This document shows, piece after piece, positions 11,726 to 59,198 of a DNA stretch of 64,000 nt; positions within the stretch are counted from its first letter, which is position 1; every line of letters starts with the position of its first letter. Below the pieces are notes generated by a model. That model searched no databases and had not been told where the DNA came from. It was given only the letters and a program-made list of their open reading frames with translations. This DNA is from Paraspadella gotoi (lineage: Eukaryota > Animalia > Chaetognatha), in contig CM119268.1 of NCBI GenBank assembly GCA_051294375.1, positions 8,737,008-8,801,007 on the forward strand, read 5' to 3'. The translations under genes and the position numbers were made by a program.

Positions 11726-12100
11726 GGCAATGTCGTTGCGAGGTTTGAGGTTCAAAGAAAAACTAAGTTTAAACCAAGATAAGATACAAATCTTTGGCAA
11801 GTTTTTTTTCGTTGACAAACGTTTCAGTTCAGTAAAGATTTTCTCTTTAGGGTTTCTTTTCTAATTTTTTTTTAACAATTAAAAAAATTATTGTTTTAAA
11901 CAGACTCAATAATTAAAGGAACAATGAGAGTGATCGAAAATGAAAGCGCTACATCTAAAGTTCTCAGTGGCTTATTAAAATCATGAAATCATTAAAATCA
12001 TGAATCATAAAAGTTATAGGCCAAATCTTTTATTTATCCTTGTATGGCTTATGCAACAGCGGGTTTGCCTGTGATGCCCATTGGGATGGGGCATCTCACT

Positions 12101-12178
12101 GTTGGCTTTGGGGCTTCCGACCCTCAGTGACGCCTCCAGTCATGGCGCGGTTACCCTAGGACGTCTCGCTTTGCCAAC
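12101..12178 (-). ncRNA. P5-type twister ribozyme, family B 3' LTR copy (predicted cleavage 12153/12152)
   Basis: P5 GTTGGC/GCCAAC, UAA at the cleavage site, P3 TGAC/GTCA, P4 GGG-TCGGAAGC-CCC. There is a one-base deletion in the GACC strand. Confidence 0.65.
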
Positions 12179-12579
12179 GAGAGGAAGTTAGGACTGTGGA
12201 TGGAACACTACGCTGGGATGGTGTGTTCCCCCTCTAGCCATGGATTGGCTGAACGGATGTGGACGTGAGGCGGTGTGAATATACCGCCACAGGATCCCGG
12301 GCCAAGACATCACTCAGGTTCCTCAAGCCTGAGAGGTGTCTGACAAGACTGTTACCATAGTGGGAGAGAGAGAGAGAGCGCGAGTTGTGGGGGCATAGCG
12401 TTTGTCGTAGCGTACTCCCAGGGGCATAGGCGTTTGTCGTAGCGTACGCCGAAGTCGGCAGGCATAGGCGTTTTGTGCGTAGCGTACCCTGAGAAGGGCG
12501 TGGTTCGAATAGTAGGGCCTCACCACTTATGGCAACAGCCGGGTTGCCTGTGATGACCCATTGGGTGGGGCATCTCACT

Positions 12580-12661
12580 GTTGGCTTTGGGGGCTTCGCG
12601 ACCCTCAGGACGCCTCCAGTCTACTGGCGCGGTTACCCTAGGACGGTCTCGCTTTGCCAAC
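12580..12661 (-). ncRNA. P5-type twister ribozyme, family B 5' LTR copy (predicted cleavage 12635/12634)
   Basis: GTTGGC-AAA-GCGA-GACC-G-TCCTAGGG-TAA-CCGC-GCC-P3-GGG-TCG(C)GAAGC-CCC-..-GCCAAC. There is a one-base insertion in L4. Confidence 0.65.
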
Positions 12662-12964
12662 GCAGAGGGAAGTCCGTTAGGACTGTGGATGGAACACTAC
12701 GCCTGGGATGGTGTGTTCCCCCTCTGAGCCAATGGATTTGGCTGACGGATGGTGGACGTGAGGCGGTGTGAATATACCGCCACACTTGTCCCTTTTCAAG
12801 AGCGAAGACTCAAAGGAGCTGTGCCTCCCAACTTAAAAAAAAAATCGATTTTGATGTTATGGTGAACTAAAAATATATATATATCATTTATATTTTATAT
12901 TATATTTTTATGATCATGCAAATTATAAAATTATGATCCTATTAAAAAGTGTTAACTTATAGAC

Positions 12965-13187
12965 TGTGGCGGTATATTCACACTGCCTCACATCCATCGA
13001 CGTTCAGCCAATCCGACTGGCTTAGTGAGGGAACCCACCATCCCAACCGTTGATTTCCATCCACTTCTCTCTGCTTTGGCTAAGCGAGACTGTCTTAGGG
13101 TAACCGCGCCAATGACAGGAGGCGTCACTGAGTGTCGAAGCCCCCAAAGCCAACAGTGAGATGCCCCATACCCCGGCTATTGCCATA
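12965..13187 (+). mobile_element. Solo LTR, family B (diverged)
   Basis: Termini TGTGGC...GCCATA; flanks AGAC/AGTC (3 of 4 TSD match); aligns with 12528-12784. Confidence 0.85.
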
Positions 13188-13622: not shown

Positions 13623-16600
13623 ATGTGGTCGCACCTTGTTTCCGTTGTCGTCGCAGCAGCATTGGTCAATGGACACGCGCCGACGTGGCCAAAATACTTT
13701 CGGTCTCCCGTCAAAGTTTACTACAAGTAACAACTAACATTAAATTTTCTTTTATTATTTATCGCACTTGAATTCTTTAAGAATTTGTCCTTGAGCTTGT
13801 ACTGTTCGCGAAATGTTACCATGAAGTTCTCAAAATTATCCAACAAAAGTTATTTTCTCTCAATGTCGTCTCGAATTACTTTGTCTTTTCACCTGCTAGG
13901 TTCTACGGCGAACCGATGGACTGGCAGTCGGCTCAGGAAAGATGCAAGAAAGATGGGTCTCACTTGGCCATTGTCGACGACGACGTCCCAAAGAAGCTCA
14001 ACCAGAAGCGTCACTACATCATGAGGAAGCTGGAGGAAGACGCATGGATAGGGCTACGAAATGGGAAGTGGGTCGACGGTGAGTTGGTACAGATGTATAA
14101 CTATAAGCCAAGAGAATCCCTTGCTTCTTTTGGACTCGGAAGCGTAGTTTGGGAGTCGGCGTTTTAAAATTTTTATTCGTATAAATATAATTATATATAT
14201 ATAATTAATCTATTCATTCAGATTTTCATTAGATTAGTGTATTTGTAATTTTTTTTATTGGCACATCGTGATCGTTTATAATCGTTTAATTGCCAGGAAA
14301 AAATATGAGGCATTCTAATTATATGCCGGGATCTTCGTCGGGCGAATGTGTCTTTGCTCAACACGGAAAAGGCGGCAGCAGAAGCGACGACGGAAAATGG
14401 CGAGGCGAAAATTGCGCTGCGAAAAAAGTATGAATCTTTTTTTCATACTTAATAAACTAATGGTATCAATTAATTGTAAAACAAAACGTCAAAGCCACAA
14501 ACAACTCTATCATCTATGAGCTAATATCTTGTAATAATTTTAGTGCTTCGTTTGCGAATCGGACAGCTTTTGCGTGGTTAAAAATAAGTGCAAGAACGGC
14601 GGTCAGTGTCAAGGTGTCGGGGACCGTCAGACTAAGTGCGTTTGTCCGGACGGATTTACGGGAGACGATTGCGGGAATGACAACCGTCCTTGCATTGCAA
14701 CTAAGCCTTGTTTGAATGGTGCACAATGTGTCCCTCAAGGCACGAGCTACCACTGCAAATGCAAAGCTGGATTTCAAGGGGTGAATTGCGAACATGATGC
14801 ACGTCCCTGCATTGCTTATAACCCTTGCTTGAATAAAGGACAATGTCTCCGTAATGGTGTTGGATTTACTTGCAAATGCATGGATGGTTTTAAAGGAAAT
14901 AAGTGTGAGAAGGATGTACGTCCTTGCATTGCCTTTAATCCTTGTAAAAATGGAGCGAATTGTGTCCCAAACCGATTAACATATACTTGTAAATGTCTTC
15001 CTGGATTCAAAGGAAAGGATTGTGAAAAGAAGTGTGTCAGCGTGAGTAAAGGTGTGCATAAAGAACAAAGTAGTTTATTTACTTTGTTATTTATTAATTT
15101 ATTAAATGAAAATATAAAATTACATATTTTGTCAACATTTCTCACTCTCATCGTCTTAATTTGCTTTATCAGGAGGTCTTCCCGAGAAGTTGGATTTGGT
15201 TTTTGTTGTAGATGGCAGTAGAAGTGTGAAACCCGGGCCGTTTAAAAAATGTCTTGAGTTCATTGACAAGATCGTGGAAAGAGTGGATGTTTCTCCAAGT
15301 AAAGCAAGAGTTGGTTTCATTGAGTTTTCTAATAAGGTAAGATAAAGCTTGGTTTTATACTCTTTATTTACCCTACCAACACACCACATAAATAAATTTC
15401 CTTTCCTCTGTTTTAATTTCTGTCTTGACCCTCTTCACCTCTTGACCCGTTTTATTTTTCCAATTCTTGTTTTAAAAAGAATTTTTTCCTCTCTCTCTCT
15501 CTCTCTCCCTCTCCCTCTCTTTCTCTGTTTACACTAATGTATCAACAATAGAACGCTTGTTGGGGTGGGATCGGGTTTCCAACAAGAATGTCTGCTTATA
15601 TTGTGAGTTAGAAAGAGCCCATGCCCATTGTCCACTAGAAAATTAGAATTGTTCAGTTGTTAAGTACCATTTATGAAAACTCAAAAATTGAATAATAATT
15701 TTTGTTCACTGAAATCAAAGTCACATTATAAAAGTAATTGATATTAATTAAGGTTAACGAAGTAGATGTAATCGACTTTAAAAAGTCAGAAGACCTTGGA
15801 AAGGCCGGTTTAAAAAGTGAAATATCTCATACGCATTATCACGATGGAGGAACGCTCATTAGTAAAGGTCTGAACCGCGCGATCAAAATGTTTCAAGAAG
15901 AAGGTAATGATTAAGAAAGGTGTTTTTTTCAAATGTATCTTTTCCTTTTAAAATTAATTATATTAGTTATTAAGCAGAATGTTGATATTCGAATTTGTTT
16001 AGGAAACAGTGAAAAACACGCTATTCAAAATAAAAGACTTACGAATGTATAAATGTAAATACAGCTAATAATAACTATTTAAACTTTTTTTCGTAACAGG
16101 CCGAAAAAACGATGCTTCTGTTGAGAAGTACATGGTGCTGTTATCCGACGGTGCCAGTTATGAATCAGATGTGAAAGCGATGTCGTTGGCGGTGACAACT
16201 CTGAAAAATCTACGCATCAAAACTTTTGTCGTCGCAGTTGGTGACGAAGCGAAAACCGAAAGAGCACGGTACTGTCTTTTGACGAATTTCAAGTCTTCTT
16301 GAATTTGCCTTAGAGTCATCGTATATGCGGTATGAGTACATAATATTAGTGAATAACATGTGTTATTATGAAAACGCATATTATTTTTATCCCACCCGGT
16401 CCTCATCAAACTCACAAACCGCAACCAACTCACAAACACTCGGCAAATAAATATATCCACAACCCAGCTAACACTATCTCAACCAACACAACCCCAACAA
16501 CGACAACATAGCTTAATAACTTACATACCAATTACCATCTATTGGTAACAAACTTAGACAATAGACATGCATTTAAAAACATTATTGCGTGGCGGTATAT

Positions 16601-18288
16601 TCAGTTTTTTTATTCACACCGCCTCACATCTACCATCGTTCACCATATTGGCTCAGAGGGGGAACTCGCCATCTCAAGCGTTGCGTTCCATCCACAGTCC
16701 CAACGAATTCCATCTGCATTGGTAAAGCGAGACCGTCCTTGGGTAACCGCGCCAGTGACAGAACGCGTCCAAAGGGTCCAAAGCCAACAGTGGGATGCCC
16801 CATCCCAATGTGCATCACAGAAGGGTCAGGACCAATAGTTGCCTAATTGTGGGGGCCCCACCACTATTTGTTAATAGAAAAGGGGTTTATAAGCTTTCTT
16901 GTAATTGCCAAACCCGACCCAACAACAACGCCACTTCTTACGTAAGAAAAACAAGCGTTTCCATAAAAAAAAACGAACAGAACAACATCGAAGAGATTCC
17001 GCATCATCACAAGAACCTGTAGTCCTTGTAATTTTTTCGAACAAAAACCCAAAAAAAAAACAAGCTTAAATTCGATTTGCATGTTCGTGAGAGCCTGGAA
17101 ATTCGTCGTCAAGGGATAGAAGCGGGAAAATTCTTCGACGACGATCTCTCTAAATACGTAAAAACACACGCATGGAAGCCCCTTCTACAAAAACTAAAAG
17201 ACTATGGTGGACTAAAATCCACCAACCGTTCATCAGCGGCCATTGGTGCCGAGGCAAGTCATTCGCCTCCCAACCCAAAGGTCCGGGGTTCTAGCCCGGT
17301 GGTCGTCTGGCAGTTAAGAGGGACGGGGCGCTTAACCCGCCTGTAACATGGTGTTACAGCCTGATCCGAAGCTCAGGGACTGCTTATATTGAACGGTTCT
17401 GTCATTAACATATATCAATAATCACTGTCTCTTCATTGGTGAGCCCGACTTCCGAACACAACAGCAACAACAACACTTTCAGGCGACATGCCTCAACCTG
17501 GCGATGCACTTTCCGCCCACAACACATCAGGCGACATGCCTCAACTTGGTGACGAACTTTCCACCAACAACAACAATTCACAGAAGAGACGCAACAGACT
17601 TCTCCCTACGGGAGGGGGGATGTATGGTGGACTAAAATCCACCAACCGTTCATCACGGCCATTGGTGCCGGAGGCAAGTCATTCGCCTCCCAACCCAAAG
17701 GTCCGGGGTTCTAGCCCGGTGGTCGTCTGGCAGTTAAGAAGGACGGGGCGCTTAACCCGCCTGTAACATGGTGTTACAGCCTGATCCGAAGCTCAGGGAC
17801 TGCTTATATTGAACGGTTCTGTCATTAACATATATCAATATTCAATAATCACTGTCTCTTCAAGACTATTGAAGATGGGTCGGGGTTCTTCTCTTTCTTT
17901 CTCTTGAACTTTTGTCCTCAACTTTGACCTCATGCCTCTTTTCCTCTTTTCTCTCTCTCTTTCAACATTTTTTTTTACATTTTGGGGTCTATTTTTCTCG
18001 CATTTACTTGTACCATGAACTATGTTAACAGAAATATATTGCTCAGTTAAAAATAATATGCGTTTTCCTCATAACACGACGTTAATCACTAATATTAAGT
18101 CTTCTTGAACAAAAAAGGTTTGTTTATATAATATTTATTTGATAAAATAATTGGAATTCGTTTCACCTTTCAGAACACAATTGAAGATGGTGGCAATGGG
18201 AAAATCAAGTCATGTTTTCGAGGTAGACAATTATGATACTTTAAACAATGAAGTCTTATCGAAGGTGATCGTTTCACAGTGTGATTAA
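13623..18288 (+). CDS. Secreted C-type lectin + 4x EGF + von Willebrand A domain protein (multi-exon)
   Basis: Signal peptide MWSHLVSVVVAAALVNG; C-type lectin motifs MDWQSAQERC and AWIGL; four six-Cys EGF repeats; vWA motif LDLVFVVDGSRSV (MIDAS DxSxS) and MVLLSDG. The last exon ends SQCD-stop at 18288. Confidence 0.85.
16500..17202 (+). mobile_element. Decayed Penelope-like element, C-terminal GIY-YIG endonuclease region, in the last intron of the lectin gene
   Basis: Frameshifted peptides LPSIGNKLRQ, KGVYKLSCNC...YVRKT, RESLEIRR and HAWKPLL, typical of Penelope/Poseidon endonuclease C-termini. Confidence 0.7.
16588..16845 (+). mobile_element. Solo LTR, family B, nested in the Penelope remnant
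   Basis: CGTGGCGG...GTTGCCTA flanked by a perfect 4-bp TSD ATTG (16584-16587 and 16846-16849). Twister P4/L4 is partly deleted. Confidence 0.85.
17236..17306 (+). other. tRNA-like (Gly-CCC-like) Pol III promoter module inside the family A LTR (second copy about 17656-17726); not a functional tRNA gene
   Basis: Acceptor stem GCGGCCA/TGGTCGT, A-box-like TGGTGCCGAGG, anticodon loop CTCCCAA and T arm CCGGG-GTTCTAG-CCCGG. The anticodon stem is unpaired. Confidence 0.75.
17309..17384 (+). ncRNA. P5-type twister ribozyme, family A 5' LTR (predicted cleavage 17333/17334)
   Basis: P5 GGCAGTT/GACTGCT; general-base strand GACG at 17322-17325; UAA; T2 GC/GC; P3 TGTAACA-TGG-TGTTACA; P4 CCTGA-TCCGAAGC-TCAGG. 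The L4 CG pairs with the CG of GACG (T1). Confidence 0.75.
17729..17804 (+). ncRNA. P5-type twister ribozyme, family A 3' LTR (predicted cleavage 17753/17754)
   Basis: Same as the 5' copy except for one G>A in the P2 strand. Confidence 0.7.
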
Positions 18289-22280: not shown

Positions 22281-22507
22281 TGAAGAGACAGTAATTATTG
22301 TTATGTGTTAGTGACAAAACCGTTCAATATAAGCAGTCCCTGAGCTTCGGATTAGACTGTAACACCGTGTTACAGGCGGCTTAAGTGCCCCGTACCTCTT
22401 AACTGCTAGCGACCAACGGGCTAAAAACCCGAACTTTTGGGTTGGGAGACAAATGTCTTGCCTCCTGCACCAATGGCCGCTGATGAATGGTTGGTAGATC
22501 CACCATA
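22281..22507 (-). mobile_element. Solo LTR, family A (diverged; twister general-base G mutated to T)
   Basis: TATGG...CTCTTCA on the minus strand; flanks TATT/CATT (3 of 4 TSD match). Confidence 0.88.
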
Positions 22508-22960
22508 CATTCAAAATAAACTTTATCTGTACCCACAAGATCTTCACTTGCACCTGGTCTTTAACAAAATAGCAATTTTTTGGGGAAAATTGTTATTATT
22601 TTAAATCTTTTTTAAACAAACACAACAAAAGAGAAAGGATTTATACACAATCTTAATATTTTTTAATAAGTATTTTATAAGGGGTAAAATATTATTAGTA
22701 CCGCATTAACAGTTCAGTTTAAGCCTTTGAAAGTGATTTACATATATTGGCGCAGCCACTGGTTGATTATTTAACTTAGGAATGAGGATAAGATAACCTT
22801 TGCTATTGCTTGTGAAGTAAAGTGAATTCTAATTGACAATGCAAATTAGTGTTATAATTAAAATTATTAATTGCATATGTAATAATTTCCAAATATTCGG
22901 GAAAGGTTTGAGCAGTTATCGCGGTTTAGAAACGTTTGCCTCACTCAGTTAGGTCCGCAT

Positions 22961-23264
22961 NNNNNNNNNNCGGGCTAAAAACCCGAACTTTTGGGTTGGG
23001 AGACAAATGTCTTGCCTCCTGCACCAATGGCCGCTGATGAATGGTTGGTAGATCCACCATACATTCAAAATAAACTTTATCTGTACCCACAAGATCTTCA
23101 CTTGCACCTGGTCTTTAACAAAATAGCAATTTTTTGGGGAAAATTGTTATTATTTTAAATCTTTTTTAAACAAACACAACAAAAGAGAAAGGATTTATAC
23201 ACAATCTTAATATTTTTTAATAAGTATTTTATAAGGGGTAAAATATTATTAGTANNNNNNNNNN
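22961..23264. other. Scaffold gaps enclosing a 284-bp duplicate of 22417-22700 (probable assembly artefact)
   Basis: N runs at 22961-22970 and 23255-23264; the enclosed sequence is identical to the upstream segment. Confidence 0.85.
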
Positions 23265-25352: not shown

Positions 25353-25494
25353 CAGACCAAAATTCATGGTCTTGGAAAGTTCATTGAATTCAACGAGAAA
25401 TAACGAAAACGATAAGAGAAAAATGGTTTAAATATTGAACTCTTTTGGAAAATGGAAATAAAATTAAAACTCCAATTATAGTTTAGCTATGTTT

Positions 25495-25760
25495 TGAAAT
25501 TGGTACAACTAATAAAAATTATTCATTCATTTAATAAATAAGCTCTCTTGCCCCTGACTTTGGACAGGCTTCGATGGTTTAAGGCCTCCATCACTCTTAC
25601 AAGATAATGACATAGCAAATCCCTGCAAGCTTGCAATCAAGACTCTCTCACTCACGGAGTACCTGGCTTCCCTATCAACGAACTGGTATAATGTTTCAAA
25701 GAAAGTTTCGATTGTATGAAAAGACCACTTTCTTAGGTATTAGATCGGTGAATACTATAT
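25495..25760 (+). repeat. Unclassified interspersed repeat (inverted copy of 40980-41265; short piece at about 10715-10742)
   Basis: Shared blocks CCCTGACTTTGGACAGGCTT, GGCTTCCCTATCAA and TGTATGAAAAGACCAC. Confidence 0.8.
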
Positions 25761-26611
25761 TATATAAGACTTTTATTGAAGATTAATATGCAGCAATCGT
25801 GAAAAGGACAATTGATTATTTATAAGTGGATTGATTCGATACATCTCTCAATAGTTATAGATTACCGATTTTATCTGAAGAGCTCTTTAAACCTCGGGTA
25901 CGATTTTATACCCTGAAAACTTTTTAACCACTGTATAATTCGGGAAAAAAAAGAAAATCTCCGTGATCCTCCGTCGAAGGCCCGCCACCAAGAACGTCAA
26001 CAATCGCTAAACCGTCCCAATCCGGGAATTCTCCGGAATGTCCCGCCGTTTCGTCAAGCAACTCTTCCACTGTTCGCCGACCGGGGAATTTACAACCGCT
26101 TCTTACATTTTTTTTTCGGGGGAAGGCCGTCCGAAAGTGGGGCATTGGGGCGCCAGACATTTGCGAAACGGATGGAATGGGGAAAGCGACGGAAGGAAGA
26201 GAGTGGGAAGAGACGAGAACAAGGAAAGAAGAGAGATTTTGTGTACGTATTCGCTTTTCGGGACGATTGTCATGTCCATCGTTTGATTCCCCTAGTATTC
26301 TGTGACAGCTCGACGCCGAATAAAGGGAATAAAAAAAAGAGGTCCAGATGGTTTTCCCCTTTATTCGCCGGACTCGTGTTTTTTTCTTATTTTATTCTTC
26401 CGGAAGGACGGTTCCAGCTTCCACTCGCTGGGGTTCTTTTTTTTTTAATATTATTTAGTACCTTAGTTACTTAGTTAGTTAAAAAGCCTCGTTGAAAAAT
26501 GGTCGCACTTTTGCACCCGTTCCAAACTGAGTACTAGTGAGTAGTTTATGGAAACGTAAAATTTTGCTGATGGTATTTTTTCCGGGTCGGCTGGTCTGCA
26601 AGCATCTGCTT

Positions 26612-39306: not shown

Positions 39307-40801
39307 CTCAAAGAATTAAATTTTAAAAAATTAAAAAAACAAGACTCCTTTTAATATTAAATAAACGCCGATTCTTCACGCTTCAAATTCGTACGAATTA
39401 AGTGGCAGGCAGACAAATCCACAATCGTGTTTAATTTCCGACTGTTTTGTGTATGCTGGTTTTCGTTAGGTAGGGTCTAGGGACTAGGGTCTAGGGACTA
39501 GATTTTAGAAAACAGGTTTTTCGACGGATCGACGATGCGACCATCGACATAAAAGATGAAAAAGAAATTTATTGGTTTAAAATGCTTTTAATGGTTTCAG
39601 TGGTTGCTAAAGAAAAAACCGCGTAAAATTCAATCAAATCCTCAATTTTTTACGGGTAAAACTCCTTTAACAACGGAAAAAAGAAATAAATTGCGATCTT
39701 GACAGGAGAGATGTCCTGACCCATTTTGTTCATTTGTTCATGTTTGGGCGGCGGCGCGCGCGTCGCTCCTCCACCTCCTTTTCCCTCTGTACCAAGTCGT
39801 CCTCATCGTTGTCGTCGTCGTTCTCGGCTTCTCTCCCGCCACCGCCACCGCCGCAGCCACGCCTCGGCCTTACCTTCTCCCGTTCTCGTCCATCCCGACC
39901 TGTTCAAGCCTTTTTTTATTTATATAATTCGCGGTACGTAATCTCAAATATTTAGGGTTTCGGTGTTTGGTCGAGGAAGTTGAGACTCAAAATTCTTCGT
40001 CTCTCGTCTGCTTTTTTGTAATTTTTTTACGTCGTAACTGAAAATATGGGCGGTTGTCGGTGTTGCGTAGGCGGAATGCCAAGCCCGGTGATCGTCAAAA
40101 TTTTAATTCATTTCTGGGAAATTTGCTGACAATAATAGAATTGAATTCCTAATTTGACTTTTATTTTGTAGATCCGCCAAATTAACCCTTATAACAACCA
40201 CTAACCATGAAAATAAATCTTGGAAAATACTGGAGGTAAAGGATTGCCCAAGGACTAAAAGTTATCATATGATTTTATTATTAAATTACTTAACCAATTT
40301 TTTTAGCGTTTAGAATTCTGTTACTATATTTGTCATCATTCCAAAAAATTCAAAATAGACGCCACAGGAAACCTCTGTTGAAGCATCAAAATATTTTTAG
40401 CCGGATCTGCTTACAGTAGATCCCGGCTCTATAATTCACTTTGTCGGTTCATCGGTCCACTCCCACAATCTTGTCAGTAAGTCACTTAAATCATGTCAGA
40501 ACATCAAGTTATGATAAATTATGAAAAAAAAATTGTCTATCAGTCTGTCCATCTCTCCTTAGCTTTGAACGCTATTACTCAGGAGTTGAAAGGGCGATTT
40601 ATGTTAGGACCCGCCGGTCCGTCCCTCCAGAAAAACGCCCCGAGAATCTTTGATTCGAGGAACTTCTATTGGCGAGCCGCTTCGGTCGTTCAGGGAAACC
40701 CTCAAAGGCAAGAATTGGCGGCCGAAGTGGATCGACGATGATATCAAACAGTTTATCTCTTTGAGTTTCTGAAGAATTCTTAAAAAGGGTACCCTTAATA
40801 C

Positions 40802-41268
40802 CTTGCAGAAACCTGCTATGTTATTATCTTGTAAGTGTGATGGAGGCCTTAAACCACCAAAGCCTGTCCAAAGTCAGGGACAAGATAGCTTATTTATTAA
40901 ATGAATGGATAATTTTTATATTGGTTGTACCAATTTCATAAAATTCAGCTCCTTGTATTTTGATGCTAGTGCGGAGTACAATATAGTATTCCCCGATCTA
41001 ATACTTAAGGGAGTGGTCTTTTCATACAATTGAAACATTCTTTGAAATATTTATACCACTTCATTGATAGGGAAGCCAGGTTCACTGGGAGTGAATAAAT
41101 AAGACTGTGAGAGAGTCTTGATTGAAAGCTTGCAGAAACCTGCTATGTTATTATCTTGTAAGTGTGATGGAGGCCTTAAACCACCAAAGCCTGTCCAAAG
41201 TCAGGGACAAGATAGCTTATTTATTAAATGAATGGATAATTTTTATATTGGTTGTACCAATTTCATAA
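40802..41268. repeat. 327-bp-period tandem duplication (about 1.4 units) of an interspersed repeat
   Basis: CTTGCAGAAACCTGC... starts at 40802 and again at 41129, identical for about 140 bp. Confidence 0.85.
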
Positions 41269-43061: not shown

Positions 43062-46000
43062 ATGGACGTGGCCGTCGCGGAATTCGTCGCGCACACCGGG
43101 TCTGACCCCGGTTTAGCTCGTGACATCCTGGAGAACGCTAAGTGGGACCTTCACGCCGCCTACAATATTTTCAACTCTCTACAACCGTTGGAACAATCGA
43201 GAAATGGATTCTTGGCCAAGATTCCAACGTCGACCGAGCGCGACGATGGCGACGACATCGACGAAGAATCTTATACGTTTCCCCTGAACTCCACCAAAGA
43301 CTCGGTGAAGGAAGACGAAGAGGAACGTGACCCCTCCGAGGATGAGGACGCACCTCCGTCTCCGCGGGAGGATCGTCGATGCATCGACTGCATCAAGTCG
43401 GACAACCTCGTCAACCTTAAAGCCAAGTCCGTTAAAGTAAGTCGAAGTTTACGAAGCTGAGTTCATTTTGCTAACTAGTTTTTAGTTACGCCGCGAGTAC
43501 TCGCGGGGCAACTCAATATAAGTCGGTGGGTCGGTATATTGGTCGATTGGTCGGTTTATCTCACTTACGTTAAAAATGTTCAGAATTCAGGTAATGCTTC
43601 AATGCTTCATCAATTTAGTTCACATTTGGTTGGAAGGAATGGTACCATATGTAGCGGTAGTATTTCATACCCCGTTACTCGTCCGAGAATCAGCAGCACC
43701 TATGGCGCCGCAGGTAGCACGAGCTCCTCCCAACCCAAAAGGACTCGGATTCGCGCCCTGCTGATTCACACAAGAAAGCGCGACAGTGCGTCTAACCCAG
43801 CTGTAGTGACGGACTACAGCCCGACCCTAAGTTCGAGACCTTGTGTACAATGGAAGGTGAACTGCTCGCGGCATCGTCGTGTTACCTCCATCGCCATAGG
43901 TGCTGCTAATTCTCGGACGAGTAACGGGGTATGAAATACTACCGCTACACATAAGACCTTTAACGTGCATATGTATCATACTTGTGCCGTGTTCACCTTA
44001 AAAAAAAACCATATGACCTAAAATTGAATGCAGCATATCTCATAAAATACTGAGGTACTTGTAGACTAGTATAGTATCCGTGAAAGATTGTTGTGCTTAT
44101 TTTTCATACTTGTGCAATGTGCAGTCATGTGACCGCGCAGAACTACGGTCACGTGATCACAAAGTAAATGTTTTAGTTGAAACTTTGCAGATAAGTCATC
44201 AACCATTAGAAGTTTGTTGCATGTCTTTTATGAAAAATTGCAATATTACTTGTTTTACTACATTAGACTTTAATATTAGAGAATTGACAAAGTTTTTGTT
44301 TGCAACGAATTTTATTTATAGTTGAACAGACATGTTTCGACTTGTTTTACAAGTCTTCATCAGCGTTTGATGAAGATGAAGACTTGTAAAACAAGTCGAA
44401 ACATGTCTATTCAACTATAAATAAAATTCGTTGCAAACAAAAACTTTGTCAATTCTCTAATTAATAGTAACAACTAAAAAGAAAGGATTACTTCAATATG
44501 ACTTTAATATTAAAATTTTAAAATAAATGTATTTTATTATTTTAAATAAAATAAGGTTTATATCCGTGCAATTGTATTTTTTTATTATATCATTGTAATT
44601 ATTAAAAAACTTAAATCCCATTTTTCTTAAATCTTTATATTTATATCCTTGATTTTGTAGTTTTTTACTTACAGCCCTGGCTGAAAAATCTGAAAGTCTG
44701 AACAAATTCTTGCATATCTAATTAACTGACTAGTGAAAACTACAAAAGCTGCTTTCCTCGGAATACAACTGTCCATATATGGATAATTAACAATATCAAA
44801 ATTAAAAGCATCTCTTTTATCATAAACGAAAAAAATTAAATTTTGGTTCTGATTTAATGTTTATATCTAAATAATTAACATTTTTATCTGGATCATTTGA
44901 TTTATTTAGGGTCAGAGCTGCTGGATATATACTAGAAAGATGTGTTTGAAGTTCCTGAATATCTGCTGAAAAAAGATCATCTATATATCTGTAACAATTT
45001 TTAAATTTTCTAGCTACTATTAGATTATATTTTGATAAATTTTCTATATAACATGATTCAAAATAAAATAATAATAATTTAGCTATATCTTGACCTGAGT
45101 CTAATCCAATTGGTATACCTAAAGTTTGCTTATAAATTAAAGACCCGAATTTGACAAAAACATTATCTAAAATAAAATTTAAAATAATATGAAGGTCTTT
45201 CTCGGTAAAAGAAATATAGTTCTTTTTTTTTATAGATGAAAAGTATGCTTAAAGTTTACATTAATATATTGTTTATTTTCTCTTGCAAAAATATTTTTGA
45301 ATAATATTTTTAATTTACTTTTTATTTCATTATGTGGGAGTGAGGGATATAATGTTGAAAAGTCATAGCTTTCTAAAAAATCAGTTTTTAGTTGTTTAAT
45401 ATTTACTTATCTTTCGTGGTATCATTTTGATCACAATTGATTTTCTTAGCTTTTATGAGTTTCTTATAAATTTTGACCATTCCATTGCATTCTGCATTGG
45501 TATGCCATTTTAAAGTTAGATTTGAAAAGGCTAATTCAAAATGCCTCGCCCTGGCCCTTGTATTTTAAATGAAGAGGTGAAATTCCTATTTAACTCTCTC
45601 CTCTCTCTCTCTCTCCTTCCCTTCTTCCGATCTTAAAACTTGTTTTACTAAATTTAGATCGCTCAAAAAAATTGGGTTAATTGATCGTCAATGGCTCTCT
45701 ACTTGGAAGGAATTTTGAGGAGTTCCTCCGAAGCTTGTAATCTATCTTACATCCGAGCTCAACTTTTTTTTACCGCTCAACTTTTAACGAGTTTAACCGA
45801 CTCGTTCGTTATCAATTTTTGCTAGCCTAAGAACTCGAAGGCTGAAATCTGATAACATCGGGCGTAAAGAATTATGTCGATACTTGTTAGTATCACCTCG
45901 TGTCATTCTGAAATTGGTTTTATCGCTGGATTTTACCAATTTTTTAATCTTCTCTCCAGTTCAGTTCCTCTAGGCTGCTCCTCTGCAGCTCTCCTCTTGT

Positions 46001-57402: not shown

Positions 57403-59198
57403 ATGGCACTTGACTTTGCCGCAGGCTGTGCAGGAGGTGAGTTCTACTTCTAATGATAAACCTTCAGCATTAACATAATATTTATCATAGTTTTTTTCAT
57501 CACTTGAGCTCTTTCTCGTAGTTCTGACCAAGCTCAATAGTCAATAATCTAAATGTTTCTCCTTTTGTTGTCATCTAGGAGTCGCCGGTGTACTCGTGGG
57601 ACATCCTTTTGACACAGTCAAAGTACGCTTACAATGTCAAGATTCTCAAAATAAAATTTACCGCGGAACCTTCGATTGCTTACGAAAAATCGTTGTCAAA
57701 GAGTCCGTAAGTTTGACGTGCTAACTGTTTCAATTCGGTAAAAATTATCGTACTTAGACCGAATAACATTTTTACAAAGAAAGAAAGATGATTTTAATTT
57801 CTGTTGATATTTTTCTTTGCTCAGCCCCTTGGTTTGTACGCCGGCGTCACATCTCCCTTGTTCGGACTCGCCTTCATCAACGCCGTCGTTTTCGGCGTAC
57901 AGGGAAATGTCGGACGTCGCTTTTCCGAACCCAACTCTCTCAAGTCTCTCTTTATTTCCGGTGGGGTGGCGGGATTCGCGCAAACATTCATCTGCTCTCC
58001 CATGGAGCTGACAAAAACTATCGTGCAGGTACATGCTAGGATTCTTTTTTATATTTTTTCAAAAAATGTAAATCAAAATGTAAATCATATACTAGGTAAA
58101 AATAAATTTGAGTTGCAAGCACTATGTAATAGCCGTAGGCCGATAAATGAAACTTAACCCCTGAAAAGACAGTAATAATTGTGACAGAACCGTTCAATAT
58201 AAGAAGTCCCTGAACCCCGAACCCCGCACCAATGGCCGCTGATGAACGGTTGGTGGATTTTAGTCCACCATACCCCAATTATTTATTATTAGTTAACTAA
58301 TGTTTGTTAACATAAGAACGGAGACGATAAATTTTATTTAACTACATCGTCGAGAAAGGGGGGGCCTGGAGCTGCAGTTTCGGATCTAGCAGCAGCCCAG
58401 CAAGTTATCCTTAGCATTTCTAAATTGAATTTCTAAAATGAATTTTTTGAATTATTACTTGTATGACAATATATCATTTATATTGCGATTAATTAAGGGC
58501 ATTAATACTGCCATTATTGATTTAAGGAATCCAAAATTATAATGCCATGAACCTATAGTCACTTGCTTACTTCTTCAGGTGCAGCACGATCACCCCAACG
58601 CCCCACAGTACAAATCTCCCCTCGATTGCTTCATTAAACTTTTTAAGTCTTCTGGATTCCGCGGAGTTTTTCGCGGGTTCGGACTAACAACGCTGCGAGA
58701 AGTTCCTTCATTCGGAACCTATTTCGTCAGCTATGAGGTGCTCTGCCGTAACTCTCCAGACCCGGCCTCGATCAAGGTATCATAATTTAACAAAGTTCAT
58801 TATTGTTGCGAATAATGTTGCGTTTTTGTGGTGATCATAGCAGCCCAAGCTCAAGCTAAAGGAAAAATTGTTCTAAAATTTAATTCTGCTTCTTTCAGGG
58901 ACTCTCATATCTCCTCCTGGCGGGAGGTTTGGCCGGCTGTTGTTCTTGGGTGGTCACTTACCCAGTCGACGTGATAAAATCTCGCTTTCAGGCCGACGCG
59001 GCGTGTCCGAACCCGATGTACAAAAACGCGCGGGACTGCGTCATTCAGTCCTACCGCGCCGAGGGATGGCGCGTGTTCTTCACGGGCCTGGCGCCCACGT
59101 TAGTTCGGGCTTTCCCCACCAACGCCGCCACTCTCACAGTCGTCACCCTCATTCTCAAATATTGCAAGAACGATTCGGACGTGGATACGAACTGCTGA
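57403..59198 (+). CDS. SLC25A29: Mitochondrial carrier SLC25A29-like (basic amino acid/ornithine carrier; 5 exons)
   Basis: MALDFAAGCAGGVAGVLVGHPFDTVKVRLQ, SPMELTK, YPVDVIKSRFQ and RAFPTNAAT: three carrier repeats. Confidence 0.85.
58162..58272 (-). mobile_element. Internally deleted solo LTR, family A
   Basis: Termini TATGGTGGACTAAAATCCACC...TTTTCA with TSD CCCC at 58158-58161 and 58273-58276. Most of the tRNA and twister is deleted. Confidence 0.88.

Follow-up and report, generated by a model that had tools for sequence, protein, structure and literature searches.

The window analysed here is a 64,000-nt stretch of the genome of Paraspadella gotoi; its genes, including TGF-beta, EGF-repeat and V-ATPase genes, are those of an animal genome. 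On its minus strand lies a short repetitive element, representing a family that we call B, which is composed of a 257-nt LTR, a 236-nt non-coding interior with a putative primer-binding site, and a second LTR (Table 1). This bears out the LTR-interior-LTR structure proposed in the initial annotation. The element contains no open reading frame of at least 130 aa, and its LTRs end with TA, not CA. The initial annotation had also noted the lack of a clear polypurine tract; indeed, none is found ahead of the 3' LTR, whereas one is present in a second TRIM family of the window, family A. The primer-binding-site-like sequence is presumably of the tRNA-Trp type. In the predicted folds of both families, the end of the LTR is base-paired to a part of the interior close to the 3' LTR.

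Table 1. Features of the family B element and of the related copies in its vicinity
Feature	Position	Strand	Comment
CAAG, upstream copy of putative target-site duplication	12785..12788	-	
5' LTR	12528..12784	-	257 nt, TGTGGC...GCCATA
5'-terminal hairpin of the LTR	12762..12781	-	fold prediction; family A has an equivalent at the same place
A-box-like pol III motif TGGCTCAGAGG	12721..12731	-	one mismatch to the consensus
B-box-like motif GTTCCATCC	12687..12695	-	one mismatch to the 9-mer consensus; 36 nt from the start of the A-box
P5-permuted twister-like motif, 5' LTR	12580..12661	-	upstream half intact; P3/L4 broken by indels
Palindromic P1 segment TCCTAGGG	12636..12643	-	self-duplex -11.0 kcal/mol; forced hairpin +2.7
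Predicted cut site U/A, 5' LTR	12634..12635	-	placed by analogy with the twister layout in Table 1 of PMC8501958
Interior	12292..12527	-	non-coding; short direct repeats, (CT)n run, no polypurine tract
Primer-binding-site-like sequence	12512..12525	-	starts with TGG, 2 nt past the LTR (after AG); same start as in family A
Interior stretch complementary to LTR end and primer-binding-site start	12351..12363	-	predicted circular fold
3' LTR	12050..12291	-	242 nt; mostly 1-nt deletions relative to the 5' LTR
Twister-like motif, 3' LTR	12101..12178	-	P4/L4 (12123-12110) intact; T1 strand and P3 broken; predicted cut between 12153 and 12152
7-nt repeat of the LTR end, then CAAG (putative target-site duplication)	12039..12049	-	
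Solo LTR	12965..13187	+	older, decayed; flanks AGAC / AGTC, 3/4 match
Damaged LTR copy	16588..16820	+	P4/L4 deleted, no clean 3' end

Some details of the flanks had to be revised. A CTTG target-site duplication had been proposed, and CTTG (CAAG on the element strand) is found on both sides, but the LTRs end at 12528 and 12050 with GCCATA, and the two copies stand at the borders of the element only if 7 further nt (12049-12043), a repeat of the LTR end, are counted in; a CAAG duplication is plausible, if not clean. Related copies do occur at both positions annotated as solo LTRs, but the one at 16588 lacks P4/L4 and a clean 3' end. The assignment of family B to the TRIMs is supported by the sharp LTR ends, the putative primer-binding site and the 4-bp flank duplications in related copies, and with box B, the polypurine tract and the duplication all imperfect, the family is best called Helenus-like.

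The region is represented in nine public runs of one organism, in each case by assembled contigs, and those from four of the runs (X1, X4, X5, X9) were compared with positions 11900-12860. X9 may be an RNA run, but its contigs include some with flanks, and it carries no information on expression. Contigs with unlike, AT-rich flanks end at 12784 in 102 (X1), 105 (X4), 89 (X5) and 27 (X9) cases, and others diverge at 12053 (78, 83 and 66 contigs in X1, X4 and X5, respectively), where the majority reads CATA followed by AT-rich sequence and the window copy is one base short. Since contigs with unlike flanks break at these two points, family B occurs as dispersed copies with sharp ends, and its LTR terminates in GCCATA. 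None of the contigs listed spans the element locus itself. The majority letters flanking the insertions in X1, X4 and X5 are AT-rich on both sides, mostly with ATAT adjoining the ends, a weak hint at a target preference (agreement about 0.4-0.5).

Aligned at one gap cost, the two LTRs of the element show 20 gaps and no substitutions; three other gap costs give 16-18 gaps with 2-4 substitutions. Almost every gap is a single base. The LTRs of an element start out identical when it inserts, and their later divergence is normally by substitution; a pair that differs almost only by gaps therefore looks like a young copy with uncorrected long-read errors. The summed contig depth in X1 (these are sums and not copy numbers) collapses where one window LTR is broken, whereas the corresponding stretch of the other LTR is deeply covered, with 623,844 at 12626-12658 against 1,889 at 12164-12196, and 519,762 at 12098-12130 against 42,572 at 12593-12625.

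The head of the LTR had been described as tRNA-like. The A-box-like and B-box-like motifs are confirmed, but the head amounts to these two boxes only, and neither ARAGORN nor Rfam called a tRNA in family A or B. The family B head has TRGCY and neither YGG nor GGTTC. The boxes are spaced by 36 nt in family B versus 44 in family A, and such a pair arises in 0.9% of 1000 shuffles at thresholds that were chosen after the motif had been seen. One loose-end majority of X4 reads the B-box without a mismatch.

Downstream of the boxes, the LTR holds the strands of a P5-permuted twister-like motif. Some of the strands were taken from the 5' LTR and the others from the 3' LTR, following the layout of the Rfam consensus and of Table 1 in PMC8501958. 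The U/AA cut strand (the slash marks the cut), the GA strand and the 8-nt L4 occur in the P5-permuted order. The strands given in the initial annotation pair throughout in T1 (3/3), T2 (2/2), P4 (3/3) and P5 (6/6), T1 and T2 by Watson-Crick pairs, but P2 pairs at only three of its four positions, and the mismatch adjoins the active site. In tested twisters P2 mismatches and a short P1 are tolerated, and natural twisters withstand flaws in P1, P2 and P4 but not changes in the pseudoknots or catalytic positions, according to the available part of PMC11662667. A mutational scan likewise found T1 variants active mainly when the change created another pair, i.e., when changes were compensated (PMC9901934, in the part available). 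No other natural permutations of the twister are reported in the accessible portion of PMC10085705.

Both halves of the motif are present in contigs of other copies, and so are, taken together, the GACC strand (as GA-CCG) and the 8-nt loop that the initial annotation had combined in its consensus. A failure to recover these two together, which the initial annotation had named as refuting its reading, is therefore not what the contigs show. Contigs that join the 3' LTR (to 12141) with the 5' LTR (from 12623) number 11, 15, 12 and 2 in the four runs, the shorter of the two matching sides reaching 49-52 letters at most. Among the loose ends, the majority sequences at 12142 (30, 29 and 6 contigs) run on into the GACC half. 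At 12623 the majority leads into the 8-nt loop in X1 (40 contigs) and X5 (30); in X4 (54 contigs, median loose length 13) it does not read the loop at its far end. A descriptor of the P5 permutation, written after the motif had been seen and loose at the scale of the window, matches four times in the window, namely in one family A LTR and three copies of an AT-rich repeat, family C, and in none of the four family B copies, in agreement with the core indel reported for each of them. One hundred shuffled windows gave a mean of 0.53 matches and a maximum of 3, and shuffled LTRs gave 0/20,000 (family B) and 1/20,000 (family A). A twister fold at the level of the family, broken in the assembled copy, is a well-supported reading of the sequence.

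Two further families of the window allow comparison. Family A (17203-17855, plus strand) is an LTR-interior-LTR element with near-identical LTRs, the duplication AGAC on both sides (4/4), a primer site, a polypurine tract and a better tRNA-like head than that of family B; partial copies lie near 22281-22510 and 58226-58272 on the minus strand. Its twister matches the descriptor within a single natural copy (17319-17375), and its predicted unit is 420 nt; it is the better test substrate. Family C, at 40795-41268 (plus strand) and 25489-25764 (minus strand), is an AT-rich repeat in a partial tandem with a spacing of 327, a compact P5-type twister and weak Rfam twister-P5 matches; its layout recalls pseudo-LTRs as seen in Penelope-like elements.

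The middle pairs of T1 are CC:GG in canonical reference twisters, CG:CG in family A, GG:CC in family B and CA:UG in family C, all of them able to pair, so that T1 of family B is swapped relative to both family A and the canonical form. The difference in T1 and the other helices that differ yet pair support the compensatory change across families claimed in the initial annotation. To call it independent was too strong. The best local match of the A and B LTRs is the head region with the promoter boxes (score 27, P 0.051), and this similarity, together with the shared terminal hairpin and the shared start of the primer-binding site, points to common ancestry. The covariation of A and B, as read from the sequences, probably arose after descent from one ancestor.

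A feature common to all three families, overlooked in the initial annotation, is the self-complementarity of P1, which reads UCCUAGGG in family B, GGCGCU in family A and AGGCCU in family C. By fold energies P1 of family B does not close as a hairpin and pairs only as a two-copy duplex; over the three families the hairpin costs +2.7 to +5.6 kcal/mol and the two-strand duplex yields -8.3 to -11.0 kcal/mol. Three inner 4-mer palindromes would occur by chance with a probability of about 3e-4 if the families were independent, which A and B may not be. In two older copies the palindrome is broken, namely in that at 16588 and in that of family A near 22300. Cleavage in the form of a dimer is described for hammerheads whose short stem III is palindromic (available parts of PMC6765202 and PMC7761336), and a palindromic P1 whose duplex is stable but whose hairpin is not suggests two-copy cleavage of the same kind. 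On the other hand, P1 is dispensable in tested twisters (PMC11662667 and PMC8501958, as far as available), and hence a monomer might cut alone. The two-strand minimum-energy fold of two family A cores, computed by a program that ignores pseudoknots, forms inter-strand pairs other than P1:P1. We put forward a need for two LTR copies in cleavage only tentatively, as slightly doubtful.

Taking the anatomy, dispersal and pairing pattern as observed, we infer the activities of family B as follows. A transcript, probably made by pol III, would start from the boxes of the 5' LTR and read through both LTRs. The twister of each LTR would cut it, between 12635 and 12634 and between 12153 and 12152, to release a unit of 482 nt; the monomer length given in the initial annotation is recovered as the distance from one predicted cut site (12635) to the other (12153), as against 420 nt in family A. 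Such a unit would have no terminal repeat, and the full element would be restored only after circularisation; the unit would be ligated into a circle and then copied by the reverse transcriptase of a putative partner, probably of the Gypsy type. Circularisation before copying has been proposed for plant retrozymes (PMC4918200, in the portion available). The two LTRs may combine into a double twister, in which each 5' half pairs with the 3' half of the other copy, which would create two active sites and delay cutting until both LTRs have been transcribed. Transcripts of solo LTRs and the circle itself, with one copy each, would cut poorly, and the circle would be stable.

In these terms, family B is a non-coding, widely dispersed TRIM with a P5-permuted twister fold in its LTR, and its operation as a retrozyme has about an even chance. 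The route through a circle is equally balanced; the predicted circle of the family B copy folds no better than shuffles (z -0.96), that of family A having a z of -2.7. In its fullest form the proposal would describe an animal LTR retrozyme with a pol III promoter, whose twister works only as a two-copy fold through the palindromic P1, so that cutting senses the full element and spares the circle, the same design recurring in two or more diverged TRIM families and also in a repeat unrelated to them. Taken as a whole, this is rather unlikely.

An active twister could also serve merely to form the 3' end of a linear transcript, in place of the T-run terminator of tRNA-headed TRIMs. The RNA would then extend from the promoter of the 5' LTR to the cut in the 3' LTR, retaining a terminal repeat of about 100 nt and following the normal LTR route with no circle. 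The absence of TTTT from the sense strand, reported in the initial annotation, is real but not significant, being expected in 57% of shuffles of the unit; the unit, however, has no T run longer than 2, which holds for 3.5% of shuffles, and the first TTTT lies 38 nt past the 3' LTR. Helenus LTRs in the supplement of PMC10886601, as far as available, often have a T run just past the tRNA-like part, at the position held by the twister here. Family A, in turn, shows no unusual depletion of T. Moreover, the same ribozyme is present in both LTRs, and its 5' copy would have to be silenced, whereas a double-twister fold would activate both sites. We consider the terminator role unlikely.

The twister might instead be a passenger, introduced with a SINE- or Penelope-derived piece that was incorporated into the LTR, and by now neither cut nor play a role. 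None of the four window copies is intact, the P2 mismatch lies beside the active site, P1 forms no stable hairpin, and a related twister sits in the unrelated AT-rich repeats of family C. Nor does Rfam give family B any score: the twister-P5 profile search proposed in the initial annotation (RF02684) returned no match at E <= 10 for the broken window copies. It likewise missed the intact copy of family A, and the Rfam twister matches are confined to family C, where they are weak (25.6 bits against a threshold of 37.6). Against a passenger stand two observations. MAFFT could not align the twister cores across families; although the cores of A and B are not alignable in sequence, all their helices and both pseudoknots still pair. 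In addition, no substitution at or above 10% is found between 12626 and 12658 among the contig-comparison rows listed. A passenger is accordingly improbable in our judgement; family B very probably carries a real twister under selection, and this twister probably cleaves.

Finally, the unit may be a tandem repeat, either a non-LTR retrozyme or SINE-like, that a Penelope-type or LINE enzyme has spread from a circle; its two "LTRs" would then correspond to one and a half circuits. This would fit the missing polypurine tract, the TA end and the animal retrozymes known so far, which are non-LTR and linked to Penelope-like elements (10.64898/2026.07.22.740005, in the part available), but is very improbable given that both ends are sharp in about 80-100 contigs per DNA run and do not lie at the cut site, that a TGG-type primer site begins 2 nt past the LTR, and that family A has a polypurine tract and a 4-bp flank duplication (AGAC), with 3/4 in the solo LTR.

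Several known systems are close to family B when it is read as an LTR retrozyme. Among them are the LTR retrozymes of plants, in which each LTR holds a ribozyme and which show 4-bp duplications and form circles (Cervera et al., 2016, PMC4918200, as far as available). Like these, family B is non-coding and TRIM-like, with a predicted self-cleaving ribozyme in each LTR, a putative primer-binding site, solo LTRs, a plausible 4-bp duplication and a monomer set by two predicted cut sites. In contrast to them, it resides in an animal, uses a twister and not a type III hammerhead, has a unit of about 480 versus 600-1000 nt, carries tRNA-type promoter boxes, lacks a polypurine tract, and has a circle that is only predicted. 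It would work like a plant LTR retrozyme, as far as the predicted cycle goes, but is not a member by the hammerhead criterion; no Rfam hammerhead match was found in the family B element. The LTR of a plant retrozyme can also hold a promoter (PMC12029980, in the part available).

Among animal elements, family B resembles Helenus and TRIMp3 (Kojima, 2024, PMC10886601, in the available part) in being a TRIM of less than 1 kb with A-box-like and B-box-like motifs in the LTR, a putative primer-binding site and a plausible 4-bp duplication, and differs from Helenus by the absence of GGTTC, YGG and the polypurine tract. The available text of that paper does not mention the twister, and ribozymes appear in it only in the title of one reference. 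Four L4 octamers were compared with its consensus file, where they occur 6 times; the 5 occurrences listed are all in interiors.

With the type-P5 twister (Rfam RF02684), family B shares the strand order, the U/AA site, the GA general-base strand, the 8-nt L4 and both pseudoknots, and it differs in T1 swapped to GG:CC, an extra P3 hairpin, a palindromic P1 with no stable hairpin, and a score below Rfam detection. The T-variant twisters of Perere-3 in Schistosoma mansoni (PMC8501958, as far as available) also combine a weak P1 with a retroelement, but in that case the twister is of the P1 type and generates the 5' end of a non-LTR element, whereas that of family B is of the P5 type and lies inside an LTR, with element ends that are not at the cut site. 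The palindromic, too-short stem next to the cut site and the tandem copies recall the dimeric minimal hammerheads of Penelope-like elements and newt repeats (PMC6765202, PMC7761336, available parts), whose ribozyme is of another class.

In the available parts of the sources, the only LTR retrozymes described are those of plants, all with hammerheads, and animal retrozymes are described only without LTRs (PMC4918200, PMC7761336, 10.64898/2026.07.22.740005). The last of these treats animal retrozymes as non-LTR hammerhead elements, and its accessible text does not mention the twister; twisters are known from exogenous plant circles (PMC12542633, in the part available). Among the full-text literature matches listed, judged mostly by title or the start of the abstract and with subscription journals and Repbase outside the scope, there is no twister in an LTR or TRIM and no dimeric natural twister; such elements could sit in the supplementary twister lists of Roth 2014, in Repbase, or in bioRxiv supplements.

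If the retrozyme reading is true, a twister occupies the ribozyme slot of an LTR retrozyme, which would make the retrozyme cycle independent of ribozyme class and kingdom and give twisters a second defined role in retroelements. A natural double twister would be a counterpart of the double hammerhead and would account for the failure of profile searches to find such motifs. The family is abundant and short, so that these predictions are testable with two in vitro transcripts.

Scans of metagenomes with two family B patterns gave 0 and 0 matches. A loose pattern returned five loci in viral contigs, none with a 3-bp P4, and these were judged by eye to be chance matches. Several other repeats were observed in the window. 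The TRIM interiors at 12400-12510 (minus strand) and 17479-17572 (plus strand) contain short direct repeats, unrelated in sequence between the two, which are possible packaging or protein-binding sites. A 142-aa open frame at 44820-45248 (minus strand) with a YIDD motif and no Pfam match looks like a fragment of a retroelement reverse transcriptase. A 284-nt perfect duplicate located between N gaps (22417-22700 and 22971-23254) is likely a scaffolding artefact and not an LTR pair. Long inverted repeats at 43638-43961 and 44275-44461, with arms of 85-87 nt, are MITE-like.
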